Under the pieces are notes generated by a model, which did not search any database, had not been told where the DNA came from, and saw nothing but the letters and a program-made list of their open reading frames with translations. Made by a program: the position numbers and the translations under genes. From Candidatus Woesebacteria bacterium GW2011_GWB1_33_22 (lineage in GTDB: Bacteria; Patescibacteriota; Microgenomatia; UBA8517), in assembly GCA_000989765.1 (NCBI GenBank), contig LBOW01000004.1:1-51062 (forward strand): DNA of 51,062 bases, in the 5' to 3' direction. This document shows positions 16,956-49,655 of the stretch, in pieces (within the stretch, counting starts at the first letter, position 1; each line of letters opens with the position of its first letter).

Positions 16956-16986
16956 AAGTATCATGTATCAAGTATCAAGTGTCAAG
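16956..16986. repeat. Heptamer tandem array (AAGTATC)x4
   Basis: AAGTATC ATGTATC AAGTATC AAGTGTC AAG. Confidence 0.8.
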
Positions 16987-18214
16987 ACAAAAGATTTTTT
17001 GTAACAAGCAAATGATGGTATCTTCTGGCAAATCTGTGGGCTTCGTCACGAATACGAGATATTAATTGCAAGGTCAGACCTTGCAATTTTATTTTGTTAC
17101 CGTTCACAAAAACTAACCTGTCGGGATTTTTGGCTATGCCAACAACTGGTATTTTAATTTTTTTAAATTCTTTATCAAAAATCTTTACTTGTCCCAATCC
17201 CCCATCAACAATAATTAAATTAGGTTTACCCCAATCATTTAAATGTTTAATTCGACGAATTGCTACTTCACGCATACTATCATAGTCGCTTTGACCTTTT
17301 AATTGTCTAATTTTAAAATGTTTATATTCAGATTTTTCTGCTACCCCGTCTATAAAAACAATCATTGAAGCTGTTGCGGATGAACCTGACAAATGAGCTA
17401 CGTCGAAGCATTCAATTCTTCTTAATTTTTTAATATTAATCAATTTACTTAAATTTTCTAACTCCTCATTCCTGATATCTTGTGTAAGATTTGGGTTTTT
17501 AATAAAACTTTCTGTTTGGATTCTACCTTGTGTAATGTAGTCTAGAGCTTGTATTTTGTCTCTAATTAATTTAGCCTCTTCATATCTCTCTAGTTTAGAA
17601 AGTGCGTTCATCTCTTTTTCAAGAAGTTTTCTAAGTGTATTAAATTTTCTTGATAATATTAATTTAATATTTCTTATATTTTGTTTATATAAAATATTAT
17701 TTATAGCTGTGTTGGGACAGGGATTACAAAGTCCTAAATGACTATATAGACAAGGTTTTTTAGCTAATTTGTGATCTGAGAAAGGAAAAACTCTTCTAAT
17801 AAGTTTAAGTATTGTTTTGACATTTGTTGAATTTGGAAAAGGGCCAAAACTAGCGTATAGGTTATAGGGTATAGCGTATAGTTTACGAACAGCTAAAACA
17901 CGGGGGAATTCTTCTTTAGTGATTACAATATATAAGGCATGTTTATCATCTTTTAATAAAATATTATATTTAGGCTTCCAAGTTTTTATTAAATAGGACT
18001 CTAATAAAAGTGACTCAAGATCAGAAGTTACTTGAATAAAAGTTATTTTATCTGCTTCCTCAACCATTCGCTTGGTTTTTGGACCAAGATTTGTTTGAAA
18101 GTAACTATTTATCCTAGCTCTTAAGTTTATAGATTTACCAATATAAATTCTTACCTCTTTTTGCCAAAAAATGTAAATACCTGGAGTTTGGGGAAAAAGT
18201 TTATTATTTTCCAT
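16982..18214 (-). CDS. uvrC: Excinuclease ABC subunit C (lacks C-terminal HhH)
   Basis: GIY-YIG N-terminus, UVR domain, RIECFDVAH, DGG, RIRDEAHRFA. Confidence 0.93.
   Translation of the reverse strand: MENNKLFPQTPGIYIFWQKEVRIYIGKSINLRARINSYFQTNLGPKTKRMVEEADKITFIQVTSDLESLLLESYLIKTWKPKYNILLKDDKHALYIVITKEEFPRVLAVRKLYAIPYNLYASFGPFPNSTNVKTILKLIRRVFPFSDHKLAKKPCLYSHLGLCNPCPNTAINNILYKQNIRNIKLILSRKFNTLRKLLEKEMNALSKLERYEEAKLIRDKIQALDYITQGRIQTESFIKNPNLTQDIRNEELENLSKLINIKKLRRIECFDVAHLSGSSATASMIVFIDGVAEKSEYKHFKIRQLKGQSDYDSMREVAIRRIKHLNDWGKPNLIIVDGGLGQVKIFDKEFKKIKIPVVGIAKNPDRLVFVNGNKIKLQGLTLQLISRIRDEAHRFARRYHHLLVTKNLLS
17064..17088. repeat. Perfect palindrome in uvrC (encodes LQGLTLQ)
   Basis: AATTGCAAGGTC-A-GACCTTGCAATT. 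Confidence 0.75.
17851..17885. repeat. Heptamer array in uvrC
   Basis: TAGCGTA TAGGTTA TAGGGTA TAGCGTA TAGTTTA, encoding KLYAIPYNLYA. Confidence 0.8.
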
Positions 18215-20022
18215 TTTTTAAGTCTTACAAGTATTGTAACAACAATTGAGATTGTAACAATAAAAACGAACAACAAATTATAGACCAGAATCTCTTTTTT
18301 AGAAGTTTTGACTGTTATTTCTTGATCTTGTATCAAAACTTTAACACTGTTCGGAGTTTTTGTTGCCAAAAATGAAAAGGGGATGTCAACATAAGATTTG
18401 TATGAACTAAAAGGTAGAAGGCTTTGAACTGTTTTTTTAGTATCTATTTCTAACTTGTCAAAATATATTTTCGGGTTTAAATTATAAATAGCGGTAGGTC
18501 CATTATTAACAATTTCAAATTCTAATTTATTAGAAACTAGGGGTATCCAGCCTGACAATTTTGCGTTAAGTGAAAGTTTTGCATTTCTCTCTTTAGGTAA
18601 TTCTCCAAATGATACAAAAACATCTTTTTGTGGATTTGCTCCAAGTTTATAACTTCCTGCAGCATATGGAAGTTTTGAATTTTGGCCATGTATGACAAAT
18701 GTGAAATGCCTTAGATCAAGTTTATTAAAGTAATCAACACCTCCCGTAGTTGAACCCCAAGTTGGATCAATTGGAATCCAGGCATTCTTTTCCGAGTCAA
18801 AATATTCAGGCCAGGCATGCAAGACATCATTAACCAAAGAAAGTGGTTGAATATCAGGATTTTCAGTATATGCAAATCCGTTGACTTCTCTAGCAGGTAT
18901 TCCAGCCGCACGGGAAAGCGCGATAAAAAGGTCAGTAAACTCCATACAAATTGCATTGTTTTCATTCTGAAGTGCCTTAAGAGCGCCAAATCTTTCAACA
19001 TTTGGTTGTACCCTTTCAAAATCATATTTTAACTTCGTCGAAACGAAGTCATAAATTGCCTGTGGAGTTTTTAATTCTTGGGCAAGTTTTACAATTTCAG
19101 GATTATCAGATTCCCAGAACTCGTCAGCTTTTAATGACTCATTTAGAGATTCCTCTGTTGGTTTTAAGAAAGATCTGATTGAAGAAAATATTTGTACATT
19201 ACCTGTTGCAGTTACATCAATTCTTTCTCTTGGTTTTAAATTATATGTAGCTATCCAATTTCCATCTAAGTCTTCTTTAACCTCAAATGGTTTTGGGTTA
19301 ACCGTTTGATAGTAGACTCTCTGAAATGCAGTATCTGGAGGTAAGGTGATTTCTGTTTGAGATTCGTGAGTTAATGGATTTTCAAGGTGATAATTTAGAG
19401 TAAATGAAAAAACTTGAAATTCACCAAAGCCTGCCGTAATCCCAGTTTTTGTAACATCCTCTTTATTAAATTTGTAATGTACAAAGCCATTAGAATTAAA
19501 TTTATCTCGAGGCGAGGGTGAAATATAGGCTTCTTGACCTAATTTTTCAGGAATCAGTAGATTTACATAATAACTATTAAAGGTTGTATTCTCAGATAAT
19601 CTTGGAACTGATATTTCCCATACCTCCCCTGTTCTAATTGCAAATGAACTTTCTTCAAAACTAATCCAGAAGGTTCTTGACTTGTCTTTTCCTACAACAG
19701 CATCTTTGAATTGAATATCTATCATTGTTTTTGATTCATTTGTGGAAGTTTCAACTACTAGTGGGCCGTTTGTGTCATAGCCTAAAATATTTTTAGGATT
19801 AATAGAATCTAAAATAATTGTATAAGAAGTTGCATAGAGATTACTAAAAACATTGGTTAAAATAATTTTATTAGTAACTTCTGTAATTCCTGATTCAGTG
19901 ACTGCATATGTAACATCAACATCTGTTGTAAATTCACCTTCAGCTTTAACACAAGTACTTAGTACAAAGTACATAGTACATAGTGAAATTAAAAAAACAA
20001 AAACTGAAGAAATCTTTTTCAT
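18151..20022 (-). CDS. Transglutaminase-like domain protein
   Basis: CMEFTDLFIALSRAAGIPAR, HAW, DPTWG; signal peptide and C-terminal TM. Confidence 0.92.
   Translation of the reverse strand: MKKISSVFVFLISLCTMYFVLSTCVKAEGEFTTDVDVTYAVTESGITEVTNKIILTNVFSNLYATSYTIILDSINPKNILGYDTNGPLVVETSTNESKTMIDIQFKDAVVGKDKSRTFWISFEESSFAIRTGEVWEISVPRLSENTTFNSYYVNLLIPEKLGQEAYISPSPRDKFNSNGFVHYKFNKEDVTKTGITAGFGEFQVFSFTLNYHLENPLTHESQTEITLPPDTAFQRVYYQTVNPKPFEVKEDLDGNWIATYNLKPRERIDVTATGNVQIFSSIRSFLKPTEESLNESLKADEFWESDNPEIVKLAQELKTPQAIYDFVSTKLKYDFERVQPNVERFGALKALQNENNAICMEFTDLFIALSRAAGIPAREVNGFAYTENPDIQPLSLVNDVLHAWPEYFDSEKNAWIPIDPTWGSTTGGVDYFNKLDLRHFTFVIHGQNSKLPYAAGSYKLGANPQKDVFVSFGELPKERNAKLSLNAKLSGWIPLVSNKLEFEIVNNGPTAIYNLNPKIYFDKLEIDTKKTVQSLLPFSSYKSYVDIPFSFLATKTPNSVKVLIQDQEITVKTSKKEILVYNLLFVFIVTISIVVTILVRLKKWKIINFFPKLQVFTFFGKKR
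19953..19984. repeat. Heptamer array in signal peptide
   Basis: AAGTACT TAGTACA AAGTACA TAGTACA TAGT. Confidence 0.75.
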
Positions 20023-20059
20023 TTAACTATTGTAGCAAATATATAGTAAAATACTTGTT

Positions 20060-20995
20060 ATGGATTCAGGTCAAGACCTCCCAGACACAAAACTTTCAAG
20101 AAGAGATTTTTTAAAATTGGGAGGGCTGGTACTGGGTGGCATGGTTGGTGGACCAATAGTGAGATCTCTAGATAAAGCACTTGAAACATCTGAAAACATT
20201 ACTGTTGGTAATTTAGAACTTACACCTATAATTACTGAGCACAACAAAAAGACATGGCAAGAAAACGGAAGTGATATTTTAAATAGATTAAAAGAATTTA
20301 AAATTGTTATTCCTGAATACTTTCCTCCAGATTATGAACATAGTATGAAAAATAATCAACTTTTAGATAAAGCTATAAACTTAACAAACTATGATGATAG
20401 TAATTATCTATTTACTGAAATATCAAATTATTTACTACGTCAAAGTAAACAAGTTTTAGTTGTAGATCCTGCCTATTCTGAAGCTTTTGTAAAATTAAGA
20501 TTATCCAGAAATTGGTGGATGCCAATACTTGGAGGTTTTGCAACATCAATTCCTTTTTTAACAAAAAAAGATTCTAAAACTGGTGAAATCAATATTAAGA
20601 AAACTTTAGTTGCGGCGACTGTTGGTTTGGTTGCTGGAACGTACACAGCGGGCGGCGACCATGATCCTACAGGAATAGAATTGGACATTAGGCATGTTTT
20701 TATTGCTGAGTCTTTAACCCAAATTGGTAAAGGCCTTGTGACACCAACGAAAGCTGCTCTTATTTATCCTGGGGGTCATTGGAAAGGAGAAATTAAACAG
20801 TCAATGCAATGGACCAATGGTATTTTATTTTATTTACAAAATCCAAAAGAAAGACAAGAAAAATTTAATAAATACTGTGAAACATTTGCAAATAAGAAAA
20901 AGTGGCAAGATTTCTACAAAATCAGACGTTATACTTCAGATAATAATAAGTGGGAAAAACAAACTGAAATTGAACTAAGACCATCGTTTAAATAA
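20060..20995 (+). CDS. Hypothetical protein with twin-arginine-like N-terminus
   Basis: LSRRDFLKLGGL plus hydrophobic stretch. Confidence 0.75.
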   Translation: MDSGQDLPDTKLSRRDFLKLGGLVLGGMVGGPIVRSLDKALETSENITVGNLELTPIITEHNKKTWQENGSDILNRLKEFKIVIPEYFPPDYEHSMKNNQLLDKAINLTNYDDSNYLFTEISNYLLRQSKQVLVVDPAYSEAFVKLRLSRNWWMPILGGFATSIPFLTKKDSKTGEINIKKTLVAATVGLVAGTYTAGGDHDPTGIELDIRHVFIAESLTQIGKGLVTPTKAALIYPGGHWKGEIKQSMQWTNGILFYLQNPKERQEKFNKYCETFANKKKWQDFYKIRRYTSDNNKWEKQTEIELRPSFK

Positions 20996-21011
20996 TAATC
21001 TGAAGTAGATT

Positions 21012-23849: not shown

Positions 23850-23852
23850 GGA

Positions 23853-23866
23853 TGTATAATTATACA
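23853..23866. promoter_or_regulatory. Palindromic bidirectional -10 element TGTATAATTATACA
   Basis: TATAAT on both strands in the 19-bp uvrA/uppP gap, 8-9 nt from each ATG. Confidence 0.65.
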
Positions 23867-23868
23867 GT

Positions 23869-24633
23869 ATGAATCTATTTCAAACACTGCTGTTATCAAT
23901 TGTTGAAGGTACAACTGAATTTTTGCCTATTTCTTCAACAGGGCATTTGATTTTAGTTGCAAATCTTTTTAAAATTCCTCAAACTGAATTCGTTAAGTCT
24001 TTTGAGATAATTATCCAACTTGGGGCAATTTTAGCAGTCGTAGCTATTTACTTTAGAAAAATTATAACCAATTTAGATGCTAAATTGTGGAAAAACATTA
24101 TAGTTGCCTTTTTACCATCGGCAATATTTGGTCTTATTTTTTACAAGTACATTAAGTTGTACTTGATTGGTAATTCTACAGTTGTAATTTGGAGTTTACT
24201 AATCGGCGGAGTTGCCATGCTTTTGTTTGAGCGTTTTCATAAGTTTTCTTCTATACGCTATACGCTATCACCTATACGCTATCTAGTAATTGGTCTATTC
24301 CAAGTCCTTTCCATGATTCCAGGGGTTTCCCGTGCTTTTGCAACAATTTTTGGAGGCATGGTTGTTGGATTAAATAGAAAAGAAGCCGTAGAATTTTCAT
24401 TTTTTTTGGCAATTCCAACTATGTTTGGAGCAACTGTTTTAGATATTTATAAAACTAAAATTTGGTTAAATCCCACTCCCGATGTGGGATTATTAATTAT
24501 TGGCTTTTTTGCTAGTTTTTTAACTGCTTACTTTGTAATTAAATGGTTTATTAAATTTGTAGAATCTCACAATTTCACAATCTTTGGCTGGTACAGAATC
24601 ATTTTGGCTCTAATTTTCTTATTCTATCTCTGA
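23869..24633 (+). CDS. uppP: Undecaprenyl-diphosphate phosphatase
   Basis: EGTTEFLPISSTGH, PGVSR, EFSFFLAIP. Confidence 0.96.
   Translation: MNLFQTLLLSIVEGTTEFLPISSTGHLILVANLFKIPQTEFVKSFEIIIQLGAILAVVAIYFRKIITNLDAKLWKNIIVAFLPSAIFGLIFYKYIKLYLIGNSTVVIWSLLIGGVAMLLFERFHKFSSIRYTLSPIRYLVIGLFQVLSMIPGVSRAFATIFGGMVVGLNRKEAVEFSFFLAIPTMFGATVLDIYKTKIWLNPTPDVGLLIIGFFASFLTAYFVIKWFIKFVESHNFTIFGWYRIILALIFLFYL
24251..24285. repeat. Heptamer array in uppP
   Basis: CTATACG CTATACG CTATCAC CTATACG CTATCTA, encoding IRYTLSPIRYL. Confidence 0.8.
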
Positions 24634-26569
24634 TTTCAGCAGCAAGTTCAAAGTTTAGGTCGTGGGCAGCTATAATCATTTCTTTCTTTAAATCTTTAAC
24701 TAATTTTCGTTTATCCATAGGTGTTAAACTGCCCGTATCTACTGCAAGGATTGGTGTTACTAATTCCTCATTTCTTTCTACTAATTTCTCTCTTAATGGT
24801 TTTGAAATTGATTTTGGAATTATTCCATATTTTTTATTCATTGCAATTTGATATTCTCTTCTTCTTTTGACTTCACTTAAAGCTCGTTCCATGCTTCCTG
24901 TAATTTTATCTGCATACATAATGACCCGACCTTTAACATGCCTAGCAGCCCTACCCATTGTTTGAATAAGTGAGGTTTGGCTTCTTAAAAAGCCTTCTTT
25001 GTCTGCATCAAGTATGGCCACAAGTCCAACTTCTGGAAGATCTAACCCCTCTCTTAAAAGGTTAATTCCAACAAGTACATCATATGTTCCTTTTCGAAGA
25101 TTATCTAAAATATCAGTTCTATCAAGAGTTTTGACATCCGAGTGTAAATATGCGACTTTTAATCCTTGTTCTTCAAGATATATAGACAGATCTTCAGCTG
25201 TTCTTTTGGTAAGTGTTGTTACCAACACTCTTCTTTTTTCTTTTATCTCTTTTTTTATTTCTTCTATTACATCTGCAACTTGATGAGTTGTTGGTTTAAC
25301 TACTACTTCAGGATCTGAAATTCCCGTAGGTCTTAATAATTGCTCAACAATACAGCCTTCAGACATAGATTGTTCCCATTCATCTGGAGTCGCGCTAAGT
25401 GCTATAAAATTAGGAATTTTTCTCATAAATTCTTCAAATTTTAAGGGTCTGTTATCAAGTGCCGAAGGAAGTCTAAAACCATAGTCAATAAGAGTTGATT
25501 TCCTTGAAAAATCTCCAGCATACATACCCCTTATTTGTGGGAAAGTAATATGAGATTCATCTACAATAACTAAACAGTCTTTTGGAAAGTAATTTAGAAG
25601 TGTAAAGGGAGCGTCTCCAGGCGCCCTCCCATCAAAATATCTTGAGTAGTTTTCAATTCCTTTGACATAGCCAATCTCTTTAATCATTTCAAGGTCATAA
25701 GTAACTCTCTGACTTAATCTTTGTGCCTCAAGTAGTTTGTTTTCTTTTCTTAATTTATTAACTCTTAGATCTAAGTCGTGTTTAATATTATCAAATGCTG
25801 ACCCATGAGTTTTGGGATCGGTTATAAAATGTTTGGCGGGATATAATACATAGGGTATAGCGAACAGGTTATAGGTTATAGATCCTGAAACAGCATTAAT
25901 TTTAGAAATTTTTTTGATTTTTCCTAATTCTAATTCTATGCGTATAGCTTCGTCGGTATAGGCGGGGTAAATATCAATATTTTCTCCTCGAACTCTAAAA
26001 GTTCCTCTTTTAAATTCAAATTCGTTTCTTTCGTACTGTAAATCAAGAAACCTATCAATTATTTGCTCTCTAGTAACTTTCATTCCAGCTACAAATTCAA
26101 AGGCAAATTTGCCATATTCATTCGGGGATCCAATATTATAAATGCAAGAAACAGAGGCAACGACTATTACATCTTTTCTAGTCAAAAGATTTGTAGTCGT
26201 TGCAAGCCTGAGTTTATCTATAAGTTCATTAATTGCAGAGTCTTTTTCAATGTAAGTATCAGTTGATGGAATATAACTTTCAGGTTGGTAATAATCATAG
26301 TAAGAAACAAAGTAACTTACCGCATTTTCAGGAAATAAATCTCTCATCTCTTGGTAAAGCTGGGCTGCAAGAGTTTTATTATGAGAAATAATTAAAGTTG
26401 GTTTTTGAAGCTTTTCAATAACGTTAGCAACTGTAAAAGTTTTTCCACTACCAGTGACTCCAAGTAATGTTTGATATTTAATATTATTTTTGATATTACT
26501 AACCAATTTATTAACAGCCAATTTCTGTTCAGGAATTAGTTTGTGTGGACTATGTAATTTAAAATTCAT
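24599..26569 (-). CDS. uvrB: Excinuclease ABC subunit B
   Basis: GVTGSGKT, YYDYYQPE, DESH, QTMGRAAR, C-terminal UVR domain. Confidence 0.98.
   Translation of the reverse strand: MNFKLHSPHKLIPEQKLAVNKLVSNIKNNIKYQTLLGVTGSGKTFTVANVIEKLQKPTLIISHNKTLAAQLYQEMRDLFPENAVSYFVSYYDYYQPESYIPSTDTYIEKDSAINELIDKLRLATTTNLLTRKDVIVVASVSCIYNIGSPNEYGKFAFEFVAGMKVTREQIIDRFLDLQYERNEFEFKRGTFRVRGENIDIYPAYTDEAIRIELELGKIKKISKINAVSGSITYNLFAIPYVLYPAKHFITDPKTHGSAFDNIKHDLDLRVNKLRKENKLLEAQRLSQRVTYDLEMIKEIGYVKGIENYSRYFDGRAPGDAPFTLLNYFPKDCLVIVDESHITFPQIRGMYAGDFSRKSTLIDYGFRLPSALDNRPLKFEEFMRKIPNFIALSATPDEWEQSMSEGCIVEQLLRPTGISDPEVVVKPTTHQVADVIEEIKKEIKEKRRVLVTTLTKRTAEDLSIYLEEQGLKVAYLHSDVKTLDRTDILDNLRKGTYDVLVGINLLREGLDLPEVGLVAILDADKEGFLRSQTSLIQTMGRAARHVKGRVIMYADKITGSMERALSEVKRRREYQIAMNKKYGIIPKSISKPLREKLVERNEELVTPILAVDTGSLTPMDKRKLVKDLKKEMIIAAHDLNFELAAEIRDRIRKLEPK
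25851..25881. repeat. Heptamer array in uvrB
   Basis: TAGGGTA TAGCGAA CAGGTTA TAGGTTA TAG, encoding ITYNLFAIPY. Confidence 0.75.
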
Positions 26570-26686: not shown

Positions 26687-26693
26687 CATATAT

Positions 26694-30226: not shown

Positions 30227-32489
30227 AAATCACCTTTCTAACTCTATTAATTGCATCAGGATTAACAGATATACTACTAACTCCTGCCTTAACTAAAATT
30301 TCAATCATTTCATCATAACTACTTGCAGCTTGACCACATATTGAAGATGTTATGCCATATTTATGACAGGTTTTAATTATTCTTTTTAATGCCCAAATAA
30401 CTTCAGGGTTCATCTCATTAAATGCTGTCGCTACGGTTGAATTATCTCTATCTGTACCTTGAAGTAACATTGTTAAATCATTACTTCCAATTGATATTCC
30501 ATCGATGCCAACTTTAATAAATTCTTCAAGTAAAATAACATTTACAGGGATCTCAACCATCATCCAAAACTTAAAAGTTGGATCATCAAAAAGACCAGTC
30601 GCGTTAACAAGTCTTCTTACTCTTCGCAACTCTTCAGGGCTTCTTACAAAAGGTATCATAATCTGGAGATTATTGTACTTTTCTCTAACTTTTTTAAGAG
30701 CAGTTAGTTCTAGATTAAAGACTTCTGGATCAGAAATATACCTAAAGGCTCCACGAAATCCAAGCATAGGATTAGGCTCTTGTGGTTCCCAGTTTTTACC
30801 TCCCTCAAGACTTCGATATTCATTAGTTTTGAAATCAGTTGCCCTATAGACAACCTGCCTTGGATAAAATGCGTCGCAAAATGTAGTTAAATTATTAACA
30901 AGTTTATTTATAAAAATATCTTGGGTTTTTCTTTTTATTGCTTCCTTGGGGTGGATTCCAATGCCTGCTATAATAAATTCAGCGCGCAGAAGACCTACAC
31001 CATCTACATTCATCTCAGAAACCTTTTTGGCCAAATCTGGTTCTGCTAAATTAACGTAGACTTTTGTAGCAGTTTTTAAGTTTTGACTTATTTTTATTTC
31101 ATCCTTTTTAACTATTAATTCTTCATTCTTAATTCCTCCTAGAAACACTTCACCTGTTTTACCATTAACTGTCACAATTTGGTCATCTTTTAATGTTTTA
31201 GTGGCCGTCTTTGTTCCCACTACACAAGGAGTTCCCATTTCGCGACTAACAATTGCAGCATGACTTGTCATGCCACCTTCATTAGTAACGATTGCTGAAG
31301 CCTTCTTCATTGCTGGTACATAATCAGGTGATGTCATTGGAGCGACTAAAACATCTCCTTTTTCAATTTTATCAATTTCTTTAGGAGATCGTAAAATTTT
31401 AACAACACCTGTTCCAATACCAGGTGAAGCTGGTATTCCTTTTAAAATAGGTGCTGTATTTTGCGTCAATTTATCATTTAGCTTTTTACCAGCTTCGCTG
31501 GCCAAGCTTCGCTTATCATTTACCTTTTCTATAGTTGTTATTGGCCTTGTTTGTACGATATAAATTTTACCCTTTTCTATTGCCCATTCTGTATCTTGTG
31601 GAAAATAATAATGCTCTTGAAGTTTTTGACCAATTTTAGCTAAAGAGACAATGTCAATATCTGTTAATTTGATTTTATCCCATAATTTCTTTGGTAGATC
31701 TCTTTCTTCAGTTTTATTATTTCTCTTGGTTAAAAGTTTTTCTTGAGTGTTTGCTTCTTTTGAAAGAATTGCAAAAGTTTCTTTTTGAACAACATAATGG
31801 TCGGGAATGTAAGCACCTTGGACAATCATTTCACCTAAACCCCAAACAGCGTCTATCACAATTCTGTCTTTTAGATTAGTCACGGGGTCGATAGAAAACA
31901 TGATTCCAGAGACTTCTGACTGAATCATTTTTTGTACAATTACAGAAATGCCTACCTTGTCATGTTTAATTTTATTTTGTACCCTGTAATAAATTGCCCT
32001 AGGAGTAAAAAGAGATGCCCAACATTCTCTAATTGCAATTTGTAAATTAGCTTCTCCTTTAATGTTTAAAAAAGTTGCTTGTTGACCTGCAAAACTCATC
32101 CCCGGCAAATCTTCCGCAGTTGCAGATGACCTAACGGCAACTAAGGCTTTAGAAAATCTGTTGGAGAGTTTTTTATAATATTTATCAACTTCATGAAATA
32201 CTACTTCAGGGAATTTTGACGTATTAATTAATTTTTGTAGTTTTTTGGAAGCATTTTCAAGCTGTGCTGGATCATTAACATTGGTAACAGCTAATATATC
32301 GTAAATTTTTGAAGATATATCATTTTCTTTCAAGAACAAATCATATGCAGGAACTGTAACAGCAAATCCGTTTGGAACAGGAAAACCTGCTTTGGTCATT
32401 TCACCTAAGTTTGCACCTTTTCCACCAACTAAAGAAAGATCGTCTTTATCTATATTTTTAAATTCAACAACTAACGGCAGTGAGGTCAT
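30204..32489 (-). CDS. ppsA: Phosphoenolpyruvate synthase
   Basis: GGKGANLGEM, VRSSATAED, TSHAAIVSRE, SIGSNDLT. Confidence 0.96.
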   Translation of the reverse strand: MTSLPLVVEFKNIDKDDLSLVGGKGANLGEMTKAGFPVPNGFAVTVPAYDLFLKENDISSKIYDILAVTNVNDPAQLENASKKLQKLINTSKFPEVVFHEVDKYYKKLSNRFSKALVAVRSSATAEDLPGMSFAGQQATFLNIKGEANLQIAIRECWASLFTPRAIYYRVQNKIKHDKVGISVIVQKMIQSEVSGIMFSIDPVTNLKDRIVIDAVWGLGEMIVQGAYIPDHYVVQKETFAILSKEANTQEKLLTKRNNKTEERDLPKKLWDKIKLTDIDIVSLAKIGQKLQEHYYFPQDTEWAIEKGKIYIVQTRPITTIEKVNDKRSLASEAGKKLNDKLTQNTAPILKGIPASPGIGTGVVKILRSPKEIDKIEKGDVLVAPMTSPDYVPAMKKASAIVTNEGGMTSHAAIVSREMGTPCVVGTKTATKTLKDDQIVTVNGKTGEVFLGGIKNEELIVKKDEIKISQNLKTATKVYVNLAEPDLAKKVSEMNVDGVGLLRAEFIIAGIGIHPKEAIKRKTQDIFINKLVNNLTTFCDAFYPRQVVYRATDFKTNEYRSLEGGKNWEPQEPNPMLGFRGAFRYISDPEVFNLELTALKKVREKYNNLQIMIPFVRSPEELRRVRRLVNATGLFDDPTFKFWMMVEIPVNVILLEEFIKVGIDGISIGSNDLTMLLQGTDRDNSTVATAFNEMNPEVIWALKRIIKTCHKYGITSSICGQAASSYDEMIEILVKAGVSSISVNPDAINRVRKVIYDQENMV
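31110..31137. repeat. Heptamer array in ppsA linker
   Basis: AACTATT AATTCTT CATTCTT AATTCCT, encoding GIKNEELIV. Confidence 0.55.
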
Positions 32490-33502
32490 CTATTTAATAT
32501 AGCAGATTTAAGTTTTAATATCCAAGGCTCAGGCCCTGGATCATCATTTCTTAGGATTGAAAGGTGAAATCCAATCCATGTGCAATAATGTACAATCTCA
32601 AAAAGCTGACCTAAAAAGCCTTTTGATTTAAGAATATAACTTTTATAATTTAATCCCATCTCATCAAACAAATCTTTGGTAATTTTATATCTAAGTTTAA
32701 TTCTTTCGTTATCTAATTTACTTTCAAAAAAAAGATATTTATTTTTTAAGACTAAGGCAGGCTCTTTTAAGGCTTCGATTAAAACATGGTTCACTTCAGG
32801 AAAATCATAAAATTGGGTAAACACTCTACCAATTTCACAAACAGCATTACGTCCTGCATTAAGTGCACCTAAAAATATTTTAGAACCAAAAAATACTGGT
32901 AAACTCCCTTCTAACCATTTAGCAGTATCCTGTGCATTCCAAGTCTTTCTAACTTCAACTAATTCATCTAATGCTGAATTTATTTCAGATTCTGCATTTT
33001 TTAAAAACCCAACTTTCTCTAGAACTCCAACTAAGGCTCCAAACGAAACGCCTAGACCTGATTTTGGATAACCAGAAGGATTGGTATCACCTGCCGAAAA
33101 AACGGCACCCTTTATCTCACCAGATTTAATTAAATCTCCAATTTTACCGCCTGTTGATGTACCTACAATTTGGCAATCAAACTTCCTAGCCGTGTCATGG
33201 GCAGAAATTGTCTCTTCAGTATTACCTGAATATGAGTTTAAAATCACTAAAGTCTTTTCATTAACCCAACCAGGGAGTCCATATCCGTTAAATATAGTCA
33301 GTGGAATTTTGTTTGTTTCTTCCTGCCAACTTTGAATTATTTTCCCAGCATTTGAAGAACCTCCCATACCAGAAATAATAATATTTTCATAACCTGTAAC
33401 CTGTAACCTATTACCTATAACCTCTTTATATGTTCTTTTAATTTGTTCAGGGAATAAATTAAGTGAATCCTCAATCCCCAACGAATCTAATTTATTTGTC
33501 AT
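32486..33502 (-). CDS. Bifunctional phosphoglucose/phosphomannose isomerase (SIS domain)
   Basis: GMGGS, SYSGNTEET, PEVNH. Confidence 0.88.
   Translation of the reverse strand: MTNKLDSLGIEDSLNLFPEQIKRTYKEVIGNRLQVTGYENIIISGMGGSSNAGKIIQSWQEETNKIPLTIFNGYGLPGWVNEKTLVILNSYSGNTEETISAHDTARKFDCQIVGTSTGGKIGDLIKSGEIKGAVFSAGDTNPSGYPKSGLGVSFGALVGVLEKVGFLKNAESEINSALDELVEVRKTWNAQDTAKWLEGSLPVFFGSKIFLGALNAGRNAVCEIGRVFTQFYDFPEVNHVLIEALKEPALVLKNKYLFFESKLDNERIKLRYKITKDLFDEMGLNYKSYILKSKGFLGQLFEIVHYCTWIGFHLSILRNDDPGPEPWILKLKSAILNR
33390..33424. repeat. Heptamer array in pgi/pmi
   Basis: TAACCTG TAACCTG TAACCTA TTACCTA TAACCTC, encoding EVIGNRLQVTGY. Confidence 0.85.
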
Positions 33503-43102: not shown

Positions 43103-44402
43103 GTAAAGCTTCTAGCAGTTTAGCACTAATTAATTTTGGGTCACCCTTTCCTGATAGTTTTTTTTGAACTTGTCCGATTAAAAATCCTATTACCTGGCCT
43201 TTGCCATTTTTATAGGAAGTAATTACATCAGGATTTTCAGATAAAACTTCTCTAATTCCTTGCTCAACATCAGAAGCTGGAATAAAATCAGTTTTTGTAA
43301 GTTCTATTATTTTTTTAACTAAACCAGCGGGTTCAAGATATTTTTCATCAAGTTTTTTATTAATCATCAAGTCTGCAATCAGCTTGTAGTTTTTATTTAA
43401 TTTACAAGCCTTCTCAAAATAATTGGCTCTTGTCAAATCAGAAACTAAAATTTCTATGTATTCTTTTGATAGGTTATATTGTTTCTCAAATCCTTCTCGT
43501 TTTTGTTGTGGTAATTCAGGCAAACTAGATTCTAATTCCTGAATTCTAGATTCTTGTATTTCAATTGGAGGAATATCAGGTTCGGGAAAATACCTATAAT
43601 CTTGTGAATCTTCTTTAGATCTTTGTGAAAAAGTCAATTTCGTATTTTCGTCATACCCTCTTGTTTCCTGTTTTATTTTTCTACCTTGACTAAGTTCTAA
43701 TTCCTGTCTTTTTATTTCTGCCTCAATTGCTTTTTCTAAAAACCTAAAACTATTAATGTTTTTAAGTTCTACTTTATAGTCGGGCAACATTACAGGTTCG
43801 GAACCTGTAACAGGTTCCGAACCTAATAGAAGTAATGAGATATTCGCTTCCAGTCTCATAGTTCCTTTTTCCATGTCTGCTCCGCTTATGTCTAAATATC
43901 TGGCAATCAATTGGAGTTCTTTGGTAAAAGCTAAAACTTCAGAAGTCGAATGAAAAACAGGTGCAGTAACAAGTTCTATTAAAGCACAGCCACAGCGATT
44001 GAAATCAACTAGGGAAATATTATTTTGATGTATTAATTTCCCTGCATCTTCTTCAAGGTGTATGTGATTTATAGCTTTACCCAGTAAACTACCCCCTACA
44101 CATAATGGATTGTCTTTTTGACTGGTCTGGAAGCTTTTGGCAAGGTCAGGATAAAAATAATGTTTTCTATAAAATTTACTTTTAGCTGAAATTGTAGATC
44201 CTAGTGCAAGTCCCAACTTTATAACTTTATTTATTGCTTCCTTATTAGCAATCGGTAAAGCTCCAGGAAGTCCTAAACAAATAGGGCAAGTTTGAGAATT
44301 AGGTTTTGCTCCAAAATGGTTTTGAGGGCAACCACAAAACATTTTAGATTTTGTATTTGGTTCTATATGGACTTCAAGTCCAATAATGGTTGTGTATTTC
44401 AT
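43095..44402 (-). CDS. gatB: Asp/Glu-tRNA amidotransferase subunit B
   Basis: IGLEVH, YFYPDL, HLEEDAGK, DYRYFPEPD. Confidence 0.97.
   Translation of the reverse strand: MKYTTIIGLEVHIEPNTKSKMFCGCPQNHFGAKPNSQTCPICLGLPGALPIANKEAINKVIKLGLALGSTISAKSKFYRKHYFYPDLAKSFQTSQKDNPLCVGGSLLGKAINHIHLEEDAGKLIHQNNISLVDFNRCGCALIELVTAPVFHSTSEVLAFTKELQLIARYLDISGADMEKGTMRLEANISLLLLGSEPVTGSEPVMLPDYKVELKNINSFRFLEKAIEAEIKRQELELSQGRKIKQETRGYDENTKLTFSQRSKEDSQDYRYFPEPDIPPIEIQESRIQELESSLPELPQQKREGFEKQYNLSKEYIEILVSDLTRANYFEKACKLNKNYKLIADLMINKKLDEKYLEPAGLVKKIIELTKTDFIPASDVEQGIREVLSENPDVITSYKNGKGQVIGFLIGQVQKKLSGKGDPKLISAKLLEALHG
43526..43553. repeat. Heptamer array in gatB
   Basis: TAGATTC TAATTCC TGAATTC TAGATTC, encoding QESRIQELES. 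Confidence 0.55.
43794..43824. repeat. Perfect 15-bp inverted repeat in gatB (GSEPVTGSEP)
   Basis: AGGTTCGGAACCTGT-A-ACAGGTTCCGAACCT; homologous to 26596-26630. Confidence 0.85.
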
Positions 44403-44403
44403 A

Positions 44404-45792: not shown

Positions 45793-46094
45793 GTTCTGTT
45801 TTCTAAAACAGCTGGAACTTTAAATAAACCGTTGTATGTGTTATCAGTCCCCGACAAAGCCTGGCCTTGTGTTAGAATGTTTTCACTAATCACTTTGTCT
45901 TCACGGAATACGTTAGTAAGCCCTGTTGTTTGATTTGTAGGTTCAACACTGTTAGTATCAACTTCTGATAATTGTCCGACAAAACCAACAATTTTAGATA
46001 GCTGGGGAGTAAACTTTTTTATTTCAGCATCGGTTAATGTGAGATTACTAAGTTTGGCAACATGTAAAACTTCCTTTTTTGTTAATTTTGTCAT
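45789..46094 (-). CDS. gatC: Asp/Glu-tRNA amidotransferase subunit C
   Basis: EVLHVAKLSNL, VFREDK, FKVPAV. Confidence 0.95.
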   Translation of the reverse strand: MTKLTKKEVLHVAKLSNLTLTDAEIKKFTPQLSKIVGFVGQLSEVDTNSVEPTNQTTGLTNVFREDKVISENILTQGQALSGTDNTYNGLFKVPAVLENRT

Positions 46095-46112
46095 GTCAAT
46101 ATAATACTTCAA

Positions 46113-47042
46113 CTAACTCATTTTTTGAAGTACGGCAATTCTTTCTGAAATTGGTGGGTGAGTATTAAAAAGATTTGCAAACAGGCCCACATTGCCTTTA
46201 ATTCCCATTTTAAAAGGACTAACAATATAAAGATGAGCTGTTGCTTTGTTTGCAGCTTCTAAGGGTTCTGTATCGGCCGATATCTTTTCTAAAGCAGTAA
46301 TTAATCCTTGAGGTTGCCTTGTAATAGCAACACTACCAGCATCAGCCATAAACTCTCTTCTTCTTGAAATTGCTAGTTGAATTAATTGGGCAATAATAGG
46401 TGAGAGTATCGCAAATATTATGCCAATTATTAAAACAACCGCACCAAGACCATTTTTTTCATCATTAGATGATCTTCTTCCATGAAAACTGCTTCGGAGG
46501 AAAAAATCTCCAAGAAGCGCAATTAATCCAACCATCACAGAAACAATTGACATTAAACGAATATCATAATTTTTAACATGAGATAATTCATGAGCAATTA
46601 CTCCTTCAAGTTCTGTTCTTGTAAGTTTTTCTAAAAGTCCTGTTGTTACACAGACAACAGCATGGTCTGGATCACGACCAGTTGCAAATGCATTTGGTGC
46701 AGAATCTTCAATTACGAAAAGTTTTGGTCTTGGAAGTCCGGCTCCTATACACAAATTCTCTGCAACTGAAGTAAATAGTTTATCTTCTCTCGAATTTGCT
46801 ATTCTTGCCCTTGAAATGCCAAGAACAATCTTATCTGAAAAATAATAACTTACAAAAGTAGATACACCTGAAATAATTAGAGCAATGCCAGCAAAACCAA
46901 GGCCACTTGCCTCATAACCATTATAAATACCAATAGCTAATGCTATAAAATAAGTAGAAATTGCAACAAACGCAAAAAATAAAACAGCAATTACTGCCGA
47001 CTTTATCTTATTTGCCGACTGCACTTCATATATATTTTTCAT
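46113..47042 (-). CDS. htpX: M48 zinc metalloprotease HtpX
   Basis: PNAFATG, HELSH, SRRREFMAD, THPP. Confidence 0.95.
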   Translation of the reverse strand: MKNIYEVQSANKIKSAVIAVLFFAFVAISTYFIALAIGIYNGYEASGLGFAGIALIISGVSTFVSYYFSDKIVLGISRARIANSREDKLFTSVAENLCIGAGLPRPKLFVIEDSAPNAFATGRDPDHAVVCVTTGLLEKLTRTELEGVIAHELSHVKNYDIRLMSIVSVMVGLIALLGDFFLRSSFHGRRSSNDEKNGLGAVVLIIGIIFAILSPIIAQLIQLAISRRREFMADAGSVAITRQPQGLITALEKISADTEPLEAANKATAHLYIVSPFKMGIKGNVGLFANLFNTHPPISERIAVLQKMS

Positions 47043-47043
47043 A

Positions 47044-47268
47044 TTACTTTATGAATTGCTCAAATTCAGATTTACTCATTCCTGATTGGTTTAAAATACT
47101 TTGAAAAGTACCAAAGGCAATTTGCTTGTGTATTGGAACAATTACTGTTTGTAATTTACCATTCCAAAATCCTCGCATCTTTAGATGACTTCCTTTTTGT
47201 GAAACTTGACTAAAATTAGCTCTTTTAAAAGCATTTACTGTCTCTCTTGAAGTATATAATTTAGGCAT
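47044..47268 (-). CDS. hicA: HicA-family toxin
   Basis: QKGSH, VIVPIH, GTFQSILNQSG. Confidence 0.88.
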   Translation of the reverse strand: MPKLYTSRETVNAFKRANFSQVSQKGSHLKMRGFWNGKLQTVIVPIHKQIAFGTFQSILNQSGMSKSEFEQFIK

Positions 47269-47399
47269 ATATAGCAGATATCTCAGGTTCTGTTGGTACA
47301 AAATAATTTGGAATTTTTACATCTTCATCTTCAAGCAATAATGGCCACAAACCAATTTTCTTCTTGCCATACAATCGCCTTCAAGTCTGTTTTTGACAT
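47261..47399 (-). pseudogene. hicB: HicB antitoxin with internal deletion and frameshift
   Basis: MSKTDLKAIVWQEENWFVA, then stop at 47331-47333; C-terminal LLLEDEDVKIP...AIYA* lies in another frame and overlaps the hicA ATG; central SQG/EA segment missing. Confidence 0.75.
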
Positions 47400-47418
47400 A
47401 AAGATATTATATCATTTC

Positions 47419-47979
47419 TTAAAGATTTACTTTTACAGATTTCATTTCATCAGAACTAACTTTCAAAAAATCTCCTGATTCAACTGTTTCCAAACCTTTT
47501 AGTTCTTCAAATTTAAATAGGTTAGCTATTATGTTTGTAGGAACAGTTGCCCTTTTGACATTGTAATCAGCTGTTAAGTCAATCAAAAGACGTCTTGAAT
47601 ACATGACTTTATCTGATGTATCTCGAAGTTCTCCCATTAAGTTTTCAACTACTGTATTTGCTTTAAGTTCAGGGTTACTTTCAACAACCACTCTAAGTCC
47701 TGATAATACATCAGAAATTTGTTTTGTTGCATCCTTTCCAGCTGAGACTAATTTTCTAGCTTCCGAGAGCATTTCAAGAATTCCTTTTTCGTGTGTTAAA
47801 TAACCTTTAACCGAGGCTTCAAGATTTGGTATTAAATCAGCTTGTCTTTTTAACTGGTTTCCAATTTCTTGGATTGATGCTTTAATTCTAGTTTTACTAG
47901 ATACAAAAAAATTATAAATTGAGACAACCCAAAAAATTACTAATGCTAGTAATCCTAATAATATATAAATAAAATTCAT
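47419..47979 (-). CDS. lemA: LemA family protein
   Basis: QLKRQADLIPNL, PELKAN, YN...PTNIIA; upstream of htpX. Confidence 0.93.
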   Translation of the reverse strand: MNFIYILLGLLALVIFWVVSIYNFFVSSKTRIKASIQEIGNQLKRQADLIPNLEASVKGYLTHEKGILEMLSEARKLVSAGKDATKQISDVLSGLRVVVESNPELKANTVVENLMGELRDTSDKVMYSRRLLIDLTADYNVKRATVPTNIIANLFKFEELKGLETVESGDFLKVSSDEMKSVKVNL

Positions 47980-49655
47980 TTAATATTCACCTCCTTCTTA
48001 AATTCTTCTAACTTCAGACAGTTTACTATATTTTTCTTCTCACACCAACCCCTTCTTGCAACATTTACTCCATATTTCATATTATCCATCATGGAAATTT
48101 CGTGAGTATCTGTACCAAGAGTTAATTTCACACCCAATTTAACAGCATCGCGGACCAAAGTGTCAGGTAAATCGAGTCTCATCGGATCTGCATTAATTTC
48201 CAAGAATTTATTATTTTTAAGACAGAAGTCAAAAATTTTCTCCCAATCAAGTTCAATTCCCTCTCTTTCGTTAATTTTCCGAGCACTAGGGTGAGCAAAA
48301 ATTAATGCTTTGGGGTAGGAGAGTGCTGTTAAAACTCTTTTGGTCATAGCATCTCTTCCTAGGTCAAAAACAGAATGAATTGATACTAAGGCAAAGTCAA
48401 GTGTATTAAGGCCTGCCTCAGGTACGGGTAAACTGCCATCTTTATTAATATCAATCTCAAGAGAATTGAATACTTTTATAGGCCAATTTCTTTCACGAAT
48501 ATATTCTTCTTTTGCTTTGAGTAAATCTGTTATTCGATTAAGGCTATGGCCTTTCTTACTTGGGTTATGTTCCGTGAAAGCTATGTATTCATAACCTAAC
48601 ACCTGTGCCCTATTCGCTATATCTTCTGCCGAGGATACTCCTAAATCATGACTTGTTTCAATATCGAAGTCTGAATGTATTTGAAGATCGCCCTTAATAT
48701 CTTCTTGTTTTACCAAAAGCGGTAGACCATTTGGTTTACCCTGAGCTTGCCGAAGGGACATTTTTATCTCCCCCATATCCTCCCTAAGTTCAGGTTCAAT
48801 ATAGTCTAGTCCTAAAAAATTATATAACTCTTCTTCTGTTTTAAAATTTTTATTAGGTTTAATACCATACTCTGAAAGAGAATATCCTTTGTTATGTGCA
48901 GATTCACGCAAAGCTATATTATGTTCTTTACTTCCTGTGAAATGTTGCAGGGCTGAGCCATATTGTTCTGAAGTTGTAACTAATAAATCAACCTGTACAT
49001 TATTTGGTAATAAAATAGAAGCTGTATGCTCCCCCGCCTCAATTACTTTTTGTGTTTTGGGATATTTTGTAAAATGTTTTATTATTTTTGCATTTTGATT
49101 TTTAAATTTTGATTTTACTAATATATCTATATCCCCTACCGTAGCTGTTTTTCTTCGTAGAGAGCCAAGACAATCTACCTTAAGTGTCTCAGGGCTTTCT
49201 TTTAACCATTCCATGACCTCAGAAGCTATATTTTGGGCATACGGGAGTGGGTGTCTTTTAGTTTTATTTATTACTTTATCAGCTTCTTTGAGTTTTTCTT
49301 TAATTTTTGATTTTGGTAGTTCTTTAAGCATTTTCATAGAAGTTTTAAGACCCACTTTAGGTAAGGCCATTAAAGTAAAGGCTTCTTTTGGAATTCCTTT
49401 CATTACCTCTTCAAAATGCCTGGATTTGCCTGTTTTAAATATTTCATCAAGGTAAGAAGCAATTGAAGGTCCAATTGATGGAACATCGGAAAGCTTTCCA
49501 TCATCCCACAAATCTTTAAGTTCTGAGGTTGAATGTTCTACTGCATCAGTAGCACGATTATAGGCAATAATCTGAAATTTGTATTTCTTTTCGTCTTTTA
49601 ACTGATAACTCGCAGCAACATTTCGTAGTAACTCAGCAATTTGAAGATTGGTCAT
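47976..49655 (-). CDS. polX: DNA polymerase X with PHP domain
   Basis: GSLRR...GDIDIL, FTGSKEHN, PELRE, PHP motifs, GTDTH. Confidence 0.93.
   Translation of the reverse strand: MTNLQIAELLRNVAASYQLKDEKKYKFQIIAYNRATDAVEHSTSELKDLWDDGKLSDVPSIGPSIASYLDEIFKTGKSRHFEEVMKGIPKEAFTLMALPKVGLKTSMKMLKELPKSKIKEKLKEADKVINKTKRHPLPYAQNIASEVMEWLKESPETLKVDCLGSLRRKTATVGDIDILVKSKFKNQNAKIIKHFTKYPKTQKVIEAGEHTASILLPNNVQVDLLVTTSEQYGSALQHFTGSKEHNIALRESAHNKGYSLSEYGIKPNKNFKTEEELYNFLGLDYIEPELREDMGEIKMSLRQAQGKPNGLPLLVKQEDIKGDLQIHSDFDIETSHDLGVSSAEDIANRAQVLGYEYIAFTEHNPSKKGHSLNRITDLLKAKEEYIRERNWPIKVFNSLEIDINKDGSLPVPEAGLNTLDFALVSIHSVFDLGRDAMTKRVLTALSYPKALIFAHPSARKINEREGIELDWEKIFDFCLKNNKFLEINADPMRLDLPDTLVRDAVKLGVKLTLGTDTHEISMMDNMKYGVNVARRGWCEKKNIVNCLKLEEFKKEVNIK
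48738..48757. repeat. REP-like insertion in polX (LRQAQG)
   Basis: ACCCTGAGCTTGCCGAAGGG, GC-rich, at the PolX/PHP junction. Confidence 0.6.
49085..49119. repeat. Heptamer array in polX
   Basis: TTTTTGC ATTTTGA TTTTTAA ATTTTGA TTTTACT, encoding KSKFKNQNAK. Confidence 0.6.

Follow-up and report, generated by a model that had tools for sequence, protein, structure and literature searches.

Heptamer tandem arrays in the genes and gene junctions of a Woesebacteria genome and their relation to cassettes encoding PF05635 four-helix-bundle proteins

To our knowledge, neither a mechanism nor a partner protein has been described for the heptamer repeats that have been noted for decades in cyanobacteria, Beggiatoaceae and Xanthomonas. 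The STRR heptamer repeats belong to heterocystous cyanobacteria, and few uncharacterised small genes are as common in bacteria as those labelled S23p or "four helix bundle". Here we describe blocks of degenerate tandem heptamers in a 51,062-nt stretch of DNA from Candidatus Woesebacteria bacterium GW2011_GWB1_33_22 (hereafter the window; contig LBOW01000004.1, positions 1 to 51,062), where they lie in frame within uvrC, uvrB, pgi and other housekeeping genes, and in the rest of this genome (G000), where they also flank small genes of the PF05635/TIGR02436 four-helix-bundle families. The arrays are a DNA-level class of repeat common to the arms of these PF05635 cassettes and to solitary copies elsewhere. 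The window is contig C4 of G000, an assembly of 19 contigs and 860,025 bases with 33% G+C that is rated 97% complete; metagenome runs containing window DNA come from groundwater and soil, and many of the relatives closest to one G000 gene come from Patescibacteria records.

Among described heptamer repeats, the TAACTGA direct repeats, which occur in marine Beggiatoaceae, in cyanobacteria and in some Bacteroidetes and the function of which is unknown (MacGregor 2015, PMC4679880), resemble the G000 arrays in several ways. Their 7-nt unit occurs in two to six copies, for the most part intergenic, a few bases upstream of starts and overlapping the upstream stop, it gives stops in three frames when read one way and lies in frame inside open reading frames (ORFs) when read the other way, mostly at the protein periphery, and its distribution across lineages is patchy (PMC4679880). 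The G000 arrays differ in having a CTA/TAG core, often CTAG (a six-frame stop), with the other positions degenerate and with many further families; in lying in the middle of housekeeping enzymes; in the swapping of units at orthologous sites; and in their explicit link to four-helix-bundle genes. The text of PMC4679880, supplementary tables aside, does not mention four-helix-bundle or S23p genes. The GGGAATC repeats of Xanthomonas and the GGGGAYT repeats of Nostoc are G-rich and have been studied as G-quadruplex formers (Rehm 2015, PMC4692102). Like the G000 arrays, GGGAATC is over-represented between genes, forms close convergent (inverted) pairs (70-75 in Xanthomonas) and keeps its gene context between species with differing length and sequence (PMC4692102); unlike them, the GGGAATC and GGGGAYT repeats are not reported from housekeeping ORFs or linked to PF05635 genes in the available text of that paper. 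With their 7-nt unit, few copies, mainly intergenic placement near starts and stops and single orientation in ORFs, the G000 arrays fall within the STRR/TAACTGA/GGGAATC type of repeat.

A described counterpart of the cassettes is the S23p-encoding intervening sequence in the 23S rRNA of Coxiella burnetii and other bacteria. That of Coxiella is a selfish element of 428 nt whose ORF encodes S23p and whose terminal stem of 28 bp is cleaved by RNase III (Warrier 2016, PMC4990558). Directly before its ATG lie three GACAGAT heptamers and a degenerate fourth, the number of which varies among strains, and S23p is itself a homopentamer of four-helix bundles (PMC4990558). The G000 cassettes have in common with this element a PF05635-family ORF, a size class of ~0.43 kb and inverted repeats able to pair as a stem (PMC4990558), but they lie between protein-coding genes, both of their arms are heptamer arrays, and they are accompanied by dozens of solitary arrays, many of them in frame. 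PF05635 also resembles Avd of diversity-generating retroelements (PMC10053308). The cassette protein matches the Avd family NF033474 (E = 5e-11) and the bAvd-like family PF22296, both below cut-off, and besides this homology the in-place replacement of sequence at constant length is reminiscent of mutagenic retrohoming; the conserved A of the CTAG core is at odds with adenine-directed mutagenesis, and no pair of template and variable regions was noticed, no search aimed at one having been made. MITEs (miniature inverted-repeat transposable elements), repetitive extragenic palindromic (REP) elements and remnants similar to solo long terminal repeats are ORF-less derivatives that look like the ends of a larger element, outnumber it and occupy intergenic spacers. 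The short ORF-less arrays of G000 likewise resemble cassette ends and outnumber cassettes, but they are tandem heptamers rather than hairpin-forming inverted pairs, they occur in frame inside genes, and no transposase or RAYT partner was identified for them. We found no description in the literature of such arrays in Patescibacteria, nor of a general coupling between heptamer arrays and four-helix-bundle genes beyond the single-species note in PMC4990558; curators of databases may be aware of the coupling, as the mention of four-helix-bundle proteins in the original list of checks suggests. The anatomy of the arrays, including copies within ORFs, has already been published for other phyla.

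Period-7 arrays and their anatomy

Arrays were scored by the number of lag-7 matches in the best 21-base window, with thresholds of 15, 17 or 18 of 21 depending on the analysis; repeats were detected with Tandem Repeats Finder and lag-match scans, host genes were identified by Pfam, and arrays in coding sequence were counted in 830 crudely called ORFs. At 18/21 or more, the whole of G000 contains 49 arrays at lag 7 and 0-4 at each other lag from 2 to 15 except lag 14, the harmonic, which gives 17. At a stricter threshold 27 arrays remain at lag 7, 0-1 at non-harmonic lags and 2 at lag 14. A genome-wide period-7 scan, proposed with the original prediction as a check, therefore finds period 7 alone enriched apart from its harmonic. 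In coding sequence, 34 lag-7 arrays stand against 1, 1, 1 and 3 at lags 5, 6, 8 and 9, and over 30 replicates each the mean falls to 0.23 when codon order is permuted and to 0.8 (range 0-3) when synonymous codons are shuffled and the proteins kept. Since both shuffles abolish the arrays, the periodicity resides in the DNA and is no shadow of the peptides; the earlier claim that it is not codon-driven withstood the codon-preserving shuffle, a test named as capable of overturning it.

The same excess is seen in a sister species of the same genus (G002), the sequence of which was obtained almost whole and which has 29 lag-7 arrays versus 0-5 at other lags. In contigs assembled from other samples the contig C6 arrays recur without a single base difference, and an assembly artefact is therefore excluded. 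The view that nothing here is special, and that chance, codon or protein constraint, low complexity or misassembly produced the arrays, draws on the A/T-rich arrays reported in gatB and polX, which lie at or near chance level in a genome of 33% G+C. Set against the contrast between lags, the synonymous shuffle, the independent contigs and the excess in G002, this view is scarcely credible for the class as a whole, and for seven of the nine arrays listed in the window chance, protein-level causes and artefact are excluded. Rfam gave no family match at the arrays.

About 96 array loci are present in the 0.86-Mb genome (80 arrays at 17/21 plus CTA chains of at least four copies), as blocks of 28-35 nt that hold four or five degenerate heptamers. 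The dominant family reads (CTA-N4)4-5 on one strand and (TAG-N4) on the other, and its periodicity is strict: four-copy CTA/TAG chains number 53 at period 7 and 0, 0, 0, 1 and 0 at periods 5, 6, 8, 9 and 10. Among period-7 CTA chains, 17 have three copies, 27 have four, 24 have five and two have six, so that copy number peaks at four to five, with only a slight excess of two- and three-copy arrays and no geometric decay. Some arrays are perfect, with three or four identical units (four in CTACATT, TATATAC and CAAGTAT), and within arrays an AABB order of units is frequent. An identical unit is common to 100 pairs of arrays compared with a null mean of 10.1, a ten-fold excess over random heptamers. 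When units differing by at most one mismatch were joined by single linkage, 94 of the 96 loci fell into one cluster, an uninformative outcome.

These features bear on the possibility that generic slippage favours 7-base units and produces arrays everywhere, independently of cassettes, which would merely accumulate or exploit them. An excess of heptamers in many bacteria has been attributed to polymerase slippage, an idea credited to a 2007 survey of simple sequence repeats as cited in PMC4692102, and the strain-variable heptamer number of the Coxiella intervening sequence (PMC4990558) is consistent with it, as are the diversity of units in G000, their AABB order and the finding that some differences between species amount to exactly 21 nt or to two versus five units. 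Slippage predicts a geometric decay in copy number, however, where a peak at four to five copies is observed, and it does not explain why units recur across loci ten times above random expectation. Together with the evidence from cassettes and species comparisons given below, this leads us to regard generic slippage as an unlikely explanation.

The placement of the arrays differs between coding and non-coding DNA. Sixty-one of the 96 loci lie within ORFs and 35 outside them or at their edges, or 0.79 and 4.03 per 10 kb, a five-fold higher density outside. Inside ORFs, every CTA/TAG-type array has CTA on the coding strand, with CTAC, CTAT or CTAA as its core, and other in-gene families are AAATCAA, CACCAAT and GAATTAA; most arrays are degenerate and in frame, features that bear on a comparison with phase-variable simple sequence repeats (contingency loci), which are perfect and shift the frame as their copy number varies within a population. 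Arrays with a CTAG core are found only outside ORFs or at ORF edges, where this palindrome is the prevailing core and the N3 positions vary. Three or more CTAG units place TAG in all six frames, and CTAG at period 7 is impossible inside an ORF. In-gene arrays show no bias towards protein ends: 9 of 61 fall in the 40 N-terminal residues and 8 of 61 in the 40 C-terminal ones, with 12.8% expected per end.

Extragenic arrays start at or overlap the upstream stop codon and end ~6-7 nt before the next ATG, as in the spacers before recG, before tpiA and after gapA, and the window array between uvrC and the next gene (Table 1) has the same junction placement. Others precede the starts of fusA, pnp and dnaB by 9-30 nt or occupy the gap separating a pair of convergent stop codons, and 12 called starts have an array ending 15 nt or less upstream. 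A Shine-Dalgarno-like 4-mer at -18 to -4 precedes only 8.1% of called G000 genes, and translation starts in G000 seem to be largely without Shine-Dalgarno pairing; the idea that arrays replace the Shine-Dalgarno site proved uninformative for this reason.

Such positions could also be explained if the arrays were cis-acting sites, kept in place by selection and bound on DNA or RNA by a heptad-reading factor. That factor might, for instance, be the four-helix-bundle protein acting as a pentamer in which each protomer reads one unit, and the sites might serve termination, RNase III processing or translation re-initiation at junctions, with the in-gene copies functional or nearly so. The conserved extragenic CTAG core with its variable N3, the regular distance of ~6-7 nt to start codons and the presence of an RNase III gene in G000 are in line with this explanation. 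The number of four to five units matches a pentamer, since the PDB entries 2GSC and 2RLD, which match the cassette protein, have five chains each and S23p is homopentameric (PMC4990558), and for the TAACTGA repeats a post-transcriptional regulator was suggested by MacGregor (PMC4679880). On the other side, units differ widely between arrays, and further points against cis-acting sites emerge from the stems and the sister species described below; we consider this explanation improbable, to about the same degree as slippage. HutP-like UAG-N4 binding, heptad operators of the omega repressor, TRAP, -10 look-alikes (TAGAAT) and telomerase-like addition were dropped as candidates, as the units are too variable.

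A few loci are particularly rich in arrays. In a region of sugar-metabolism genes on contig C6 (25,600-36,700; locus L061 5600-16700), which includes tpiA, rpiB, gapA, a class-I aldolase gene and pfkB, arrays occupy many junctions (25670, 26947, 27640, 28029, 30652 and 36584), and another lies within the aldolase gene (34703). An ORF for a Pol-beta-type nucleotidyltransferase on contig C9 (30012-30806; L063 10012-10806) holds three arrays: four copies of TACTACA at 30345, the inverse AGTAGTA type at 30591 and four copies of CATTCTA at 30629. G002 is 21 nt shorter at the sites of the second and third. The genes for IleRS and TopA hold three arrays each. On contig C2 (87229-89826; L066 17229-19826), dnaB contains an intein with a LAGLIDADG endonuclease domain, and the gene's start is preceded, at a distance of 30 nt, by a CTAG array.

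Cassettes with heptamer arms

Four genes for PF05635/TIGR02436 four-helix-bundle proteins (S23p, or "23S rRNA intervening-sequence protein") are present in G000, on contigs C6, C15, C11 and C2, and each of them stands between short tandem arrays that are inverted relative to one another (Table 1); the one between tpiA and rpiB has CTAG-type arrays on both sides. These cassettes measure 0.4-0.5 kb and sit between protein-coding genes, not within 23S rRNA. When the 20 top-scoring PF05635 genes of 20 other genomes of the phylum were inspected by eye, ~18 had such arms, one of them built of nonamers. The association extends beyond the phylum. At 80 further PF05635 loci from Bacteroidota, Planctomycetota, Acidobacteriota, Clostridia, Gammaproteobacteria, one archaeal bin and others, 41 have a lag-7 array of at least 15/21 upstream of the gene and 35 have one downstream; 21 have both and 55 have at least one of the two, compared with rates of 3.1% upstream, 2.3% downstream and 0.25% on both sides for control genes. 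The best lag of the flanks that score at least 15 is 7 in 76 of them, 8 in 15 and 9 in 3. Enrichment of particular genes, such as those of the four-helix-bundle type, beside the arrays had been put forward as a further check, and it is borne out by all four cases in G000 and by most elsewhere.

The arms have a fixed polarity. Across 100 cassettes, period-7 TAG is found upstream and downstream in 33 and 2 cases, CTA in 5 and 23, AGT in 21 and 1, and ACT in 1 and 21, and in the same 100 cassettes there is no recurrence of TAG or CTA at periods 5 or 6. So strict a polarity around PF05635 genes is not accounted for by generic slippage. Units seen in genes of the window, such as TAGGGTA/CTATACC and CTGTAAC, recur in several arms of the cassettes from many phyla.

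Inverted arms can pair. For 24 cassettes the duplex between upstream and downstream flanks has a mean energy of -34.2 kcal/mol, compared with -16.3 +/- 5.6 kcal/mol for 816 control genes, and 14 of the 24 fall below the 1st percentile of the controls. RNA of the C11 cassette folds with its arms paired, in the minimum-energy structure as well as in the centroid one, with a modest whole-sequence z-score of -1.86. The stems are equally stable on both strands, however, with no asymmetry between sense and antisense (46 versus 47 cassettes, Wilcoxon P = 0.9), and therefore the stem is not assignable to RNA rather than DNA. This counts against cis-acting sites read in RNA, since nothing indicates an RNA-only structure; processing of the arm stems by RNase III is conceivable, as G000 has a gene for this enzyme.

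The presence of arrays in a genome is linked to that of the gene family. Among 401 genomes of the phylum (sampled sizes 0.4-2.1 Mb), the pattern of three CTAGNNN units followed by CTAG occurs patchily, in 28, and PF05635 in 230; PF05635 is present in 27 of the 28 genomes with CTAG arrays and in 203 of the 373 without (Fisher P = 3.5e-6, overstated because relatives are non-independent). This tally includes G193, which has PF05635 and no array; with G193 excluded the latter figure is 202 of 372 and the result is unchanged. In a set of 41 close relatives, an excess of CTA-N4 arrays over a reversed control pattern is seen in 0 of 8 without PF05635 and in 19 of 33 with it (P = 0.004, overstated likewise), and the Spearman correlation between PF05635 count and CTA-N4 arrays is 0.51. 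Genomes without cassettes are thus mostly without arrays, whereas slippage independent of cassettes would not be expected to leave all eight relatives that lack PF05635 without an excess.

One observation concerns a site where G000 has an array alone. In contigs from all four of four metagenome runs, C6 position 36607 (L061 16607), in the solitary array downstream of pfkB, is joined to C6 position 27677 (L061 7677), the start of a cassette ORF, with three letters at the joint, and in one of these runs the depth is higher than that of G000 itself. A related strain may carry a cassette at this site.

Turnover between species and origin of the solitary arrays

Cassettes and arrays both turn over between the sister species. 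Compared with G002, three of the four G000 cassettes are precise insertions, ~410-500 nt in length, in very short spacers, and of the four cassettes in G002 three are missing at collinear G000 sites and one is common to both. Precise indels in both species mean that cassettes come and go within one genus. For the arrays, flanks could be matched in G002 at 73 of the 96 loci, and G002 has an array at 27 of these 73 sites (0.9% expected by chance). The unit is the same in 12 of the 27 and differs in unit or length in 15, with some swaps of the unit at equal total length (AAAAATC versus CACTAAT in ileS; CTACATT versus ATTACTT in a Wzy-like gene). Some arrays with a common unit exceed the conservation of their flanks, as at C6 26942-26977, where 36 of 36 bases are identical and the flanks are 89% identical, a point in favour of cis-acting sites. 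At the other 46 sites G002 has no array, among them those of the window in uvrC, the signal peptide, uppP, ppsA and pgi. Cis-acting sites fit poorly with the fact that 32 of 52 in-gene arrays are absent from the sister species and that units differ widely at the same site where arrays are present.

The mode of change differs inside and outside genes. Where G002 lacks an in-gene array, the length difference is a multiple of 3 and in many cases 0, and in-gene differences between G000 and G002 range from -42 to +77; at extragenic sites without an array in G002, G000 mostly has a clean insertion of 21-46 nt. A clean 21-nt insertion of three units was rejected as the rule inside genes in view of this range and of the many differences of 0. 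Slippage is disfavoured in the same way, as 21 does not divide most of the in-gene length differences, and at many sites the length is unchanged although the unit is another one altogether. In-gene arrays thus replace sequence more often than they add to it, and their turnover is faster than that of their surroundings. Alignment to orthologues, called for to tell insertion from replacement, accordingly points mostly to replacement within genes. UvrB proteins from 19 relatives show no 7-residue insertion when aligned around the array, which occupies the variable loop before YPAKHF, and in this loop period-7 arrays with other units occur in G002 (TCACNGT), in G018 of a different genus (TCACCAN) and in G021 (AAAAATT type). 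The UvrB alignment and the comparison of sites with G002 support the earlier statement that arrays appear to occupy variable loops: they lie in variable, indel-prone parts of proteins.

We think there is an even chance that solitary arrays derive from cassette arms, as copies or remnants, or that a common array-forming step gave rise to both, with selection as a filter. Gene junctions would be reached in this way and, less often, ORFs, where only copies that keep the frame, with CTA and never TAG on the coding strand, would survive, and only in indel-tolerant loops, linkers and signal peptides. Such a filter would yield the CTA-only orientation, the lack of CTAG in ORFs, the indel-tolerant sites and the five-fold lower in-gene density. 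Arrays would then be lost, replaced or re-homogenised quickly, and the remodelling of loops would be a by-product of no service to the host protein. It is possible that the palindromic CTAG core lets both arms act as direct repeats, so that the ORF is lost and a single array left; such a loss would fit the dominance of CTAG among extragenic solitary arrays.

Several observations weigh against an origin from cassette arms. A search of the whole genome, with stops read as X, found no PF05635 pseudogene remnants beside solitary arrays and thus no intermediates of ORF loss; the in-gene families CTACATT, AAATCAA, CTATACG and TTAGCAT have no matching cassette arms in G000; and reverse transcriptase PF00078 was not found in G000, G001 or G002. 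A transposon with a 7-bp target duplication was rejected, as inspection by eye showed no target-site duplication at six polymorphic cassette junctions. In the genome comparisons, besides the non-independence of relatives, cassette arms themselves contribute a few counts to the pattern tallies, and PF05635 count also weakly tracks the reversed control pattern (rho 0.37). Individual genomes depart from the association: G018 has no PF05635 match yet has a uvrB-loop array, and CTA-N4 arrays are absent from G023 and G037 despite their PF05635 matches. Contigs from the four metagenome DNA runs contain zero 7- or 21-nt length variants at the C6 arrays, which says little, as contigs drop rare variants. 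The original prediction that an active process seeds the repeats is upheld insofar as the arrays are DNA-level, genome-wide and subject to turnover between species, and so recent or ongoing, while the repeat-writing enzyme and the binding-site role stay proposals. Its claim that the process remodels protein loops holds to the extent that arrays lie in loops with altered sequence, and nothing beyond a tolerated by-product is supported.

A broader proposal, which we offer tentatively and rate only a little above slippage or cis-acting sites, is that PF05635/TIGR02436 cassettes are pan-bacterial mobile elements whose pentamer recognises or propagates blocks of four to five heptads, solitary copies of which are seeded at junctions and in frame into genes, and that this would explain the STRR, TAACTGA and GGGAATC repeats. 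If true, one system would continually rewrite surface loops of housekeeping proteins. Heptamer arrays and four-helix-bundle genes are physically coupled with a fixed polarity in 100 cassettes from many phyla, and solitary arrays in G000 outnumber cassettes ~20:1 and reach essential enzymes. The two puzzles of the repeats and of the genes thereby become one question, whether the pentamer binds or propagates heptad arrays. The arrays are in addition a DNA-level source of in-frame peptide novelty in protein loops, and a (TAG-N4)n array can serve annotation as a mark of a gene boundary or a cassette end.

The arrays of the window and other features

The arrays listed in the window are collected in Table 1. 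The window has no PF05635 match, and its arrays are therefore solitary rather than cassette arms. Seven of the nine arrays originally listed are solid. The claimed gatB array is indistinguishable from chance, since 0.24% of all windows in the genome attain its score of 13 when the lag is set to the control values of 5, 8, 10 and 11, and the polX array is borderline. Only five arrays in the window reach 17/21 (the junction array and those of uvrC, the transglutaminase-like gene, ppsA and pgi), and positions 1-16900 contain none at this score. Pfam supports the host gene names that had been given (UvrC, transglutaminase-like, BacA/UppP, UvrB, PpsA, bacterial PGI, GatB and PolX-PHP), and the reading frames are open across all listed arrays.

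Table 1. Arrays listed in the window, arms of the four PF05635 cassettes of G000, and G000 genes flanked by palindromic hairpins
Feature	Position (strand)	Placement or units	Score	Tandem Repeats Finder, period 7
Solitary junction array	16953..16988 (-)	Spacer from uvrC stop codon (16982-16984) to start of holin-like gene 16549-16950	19/21	16956-16986, 4.4 copies
uvrC array	17851..17885 (-)	In frame, residues ~109-121, linker between GIY-YIG and UVR domains	17/21	17851-17881, 4.4 copies
Transglutaminase-like protein array	19953..19988 (-)	In frame, N-terminal signal-peptide region, residues 11-23	18/21	19954-19984, 4.4 copies
uppP/bacA array	24251..24282 (+)	In frame, residues 127-139; indel inside array	15/21	24251-24282, 4.6 copies
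uvrB array	25851..25881 (-)	Degenerate, in frame, residues 227-239, variable loop before conserved YPAKHF	14/21	Only exact core 25866-25881, 2.3 copies, within looser array
ppsA array	31108..31135 (-)	In frame, residues ~448-459	17/21	31115-31135, 3.0 copies
pgi array	33388..33425 (-)	In frame, bacterial PGI N-terminus, residues 25-37, N-terminal to SIS domain	19/21	33389-33423, 5.0 copies
Claimed gatB array	43526..43560 (-)		13/21	No row
Claimed polX array	49084..49116 (-)	A/T-rich	15/21	4.7 copies, 69% matches (period 14 fits better, 89%)
Cassette arms, first		Upstream (TAG-N4)5; downstream (CTA-N4)4		
Cassette arms, C15	C15	Upstream AAGAATT units; downstream AATTCTT units		
Cassette arms, third		Upstream TCAG-type; downstream ACTGA-type		
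Cassette arms, fourth		Upstream CTAA-type; downstream TTAG-type		
Hairpin-flanked gene	C2 145679-146350			
Hairpin-flanked gene	C2 66183-66818			
Hairpin-flanked gene	C7 19767-20408			
Hairpin-flanked gene	C1 150594-151271			
Hairpin-flanked gene	C8 9652-10335			

The uvrC, uvrB, uppP and pgi arrays had been assigned to one family, and reading of the bases confirms both this and the units quoted for it, with CTA always on the coding strand. The coding strand of uvrC reads CTATACG CTATACC CTATAAC CTATACG CTA, and at this site G002 is 24 nt shorter. At the uppP array (CTATACG CTATACG CTATCAC CTATACG CTA) G002 is 9 nt longer than G000. The uvrB array, within the UvrB interaction domain of Pfam, is weak by lag score but has TAG at period 7 in four of its five units. 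In pgi the coding strand reads AGGTTAT AGGTAAT AGGTTAC AGGTTAC AGGTTA. The ppsA array belongs on its coding strand to the GAATTAA/AAGAATT unit family, which is that of the C15 cassette arms. At the transglutaminase-like gene G000 is ~18 nt longer than G002. The junction array downstream of uvrC reads ACTTGAT ACTTGAT ACATGAT ACTTAAATC on the gene strand, followed by ATG.

Three further observations were made. A tRNA gene at 1586-1659 is the sole Rfam match at gathering score in the window. The UvrB proteins of G003, G024, G034, G035 and G039 (693-743 residues) give a two-piece match in one open frame, which indicates that ~40-90 residues are inserted in frame close to residue 405. Finally, G000 contains a second family of short repeats, without relation to the heptamers, in which the same perfect palindromic hairpin stands on both sides of a gene (Table 1), for example built on TTGCAAGGTC-GACCTTGCAA or on AAGGTTGAACCTT.

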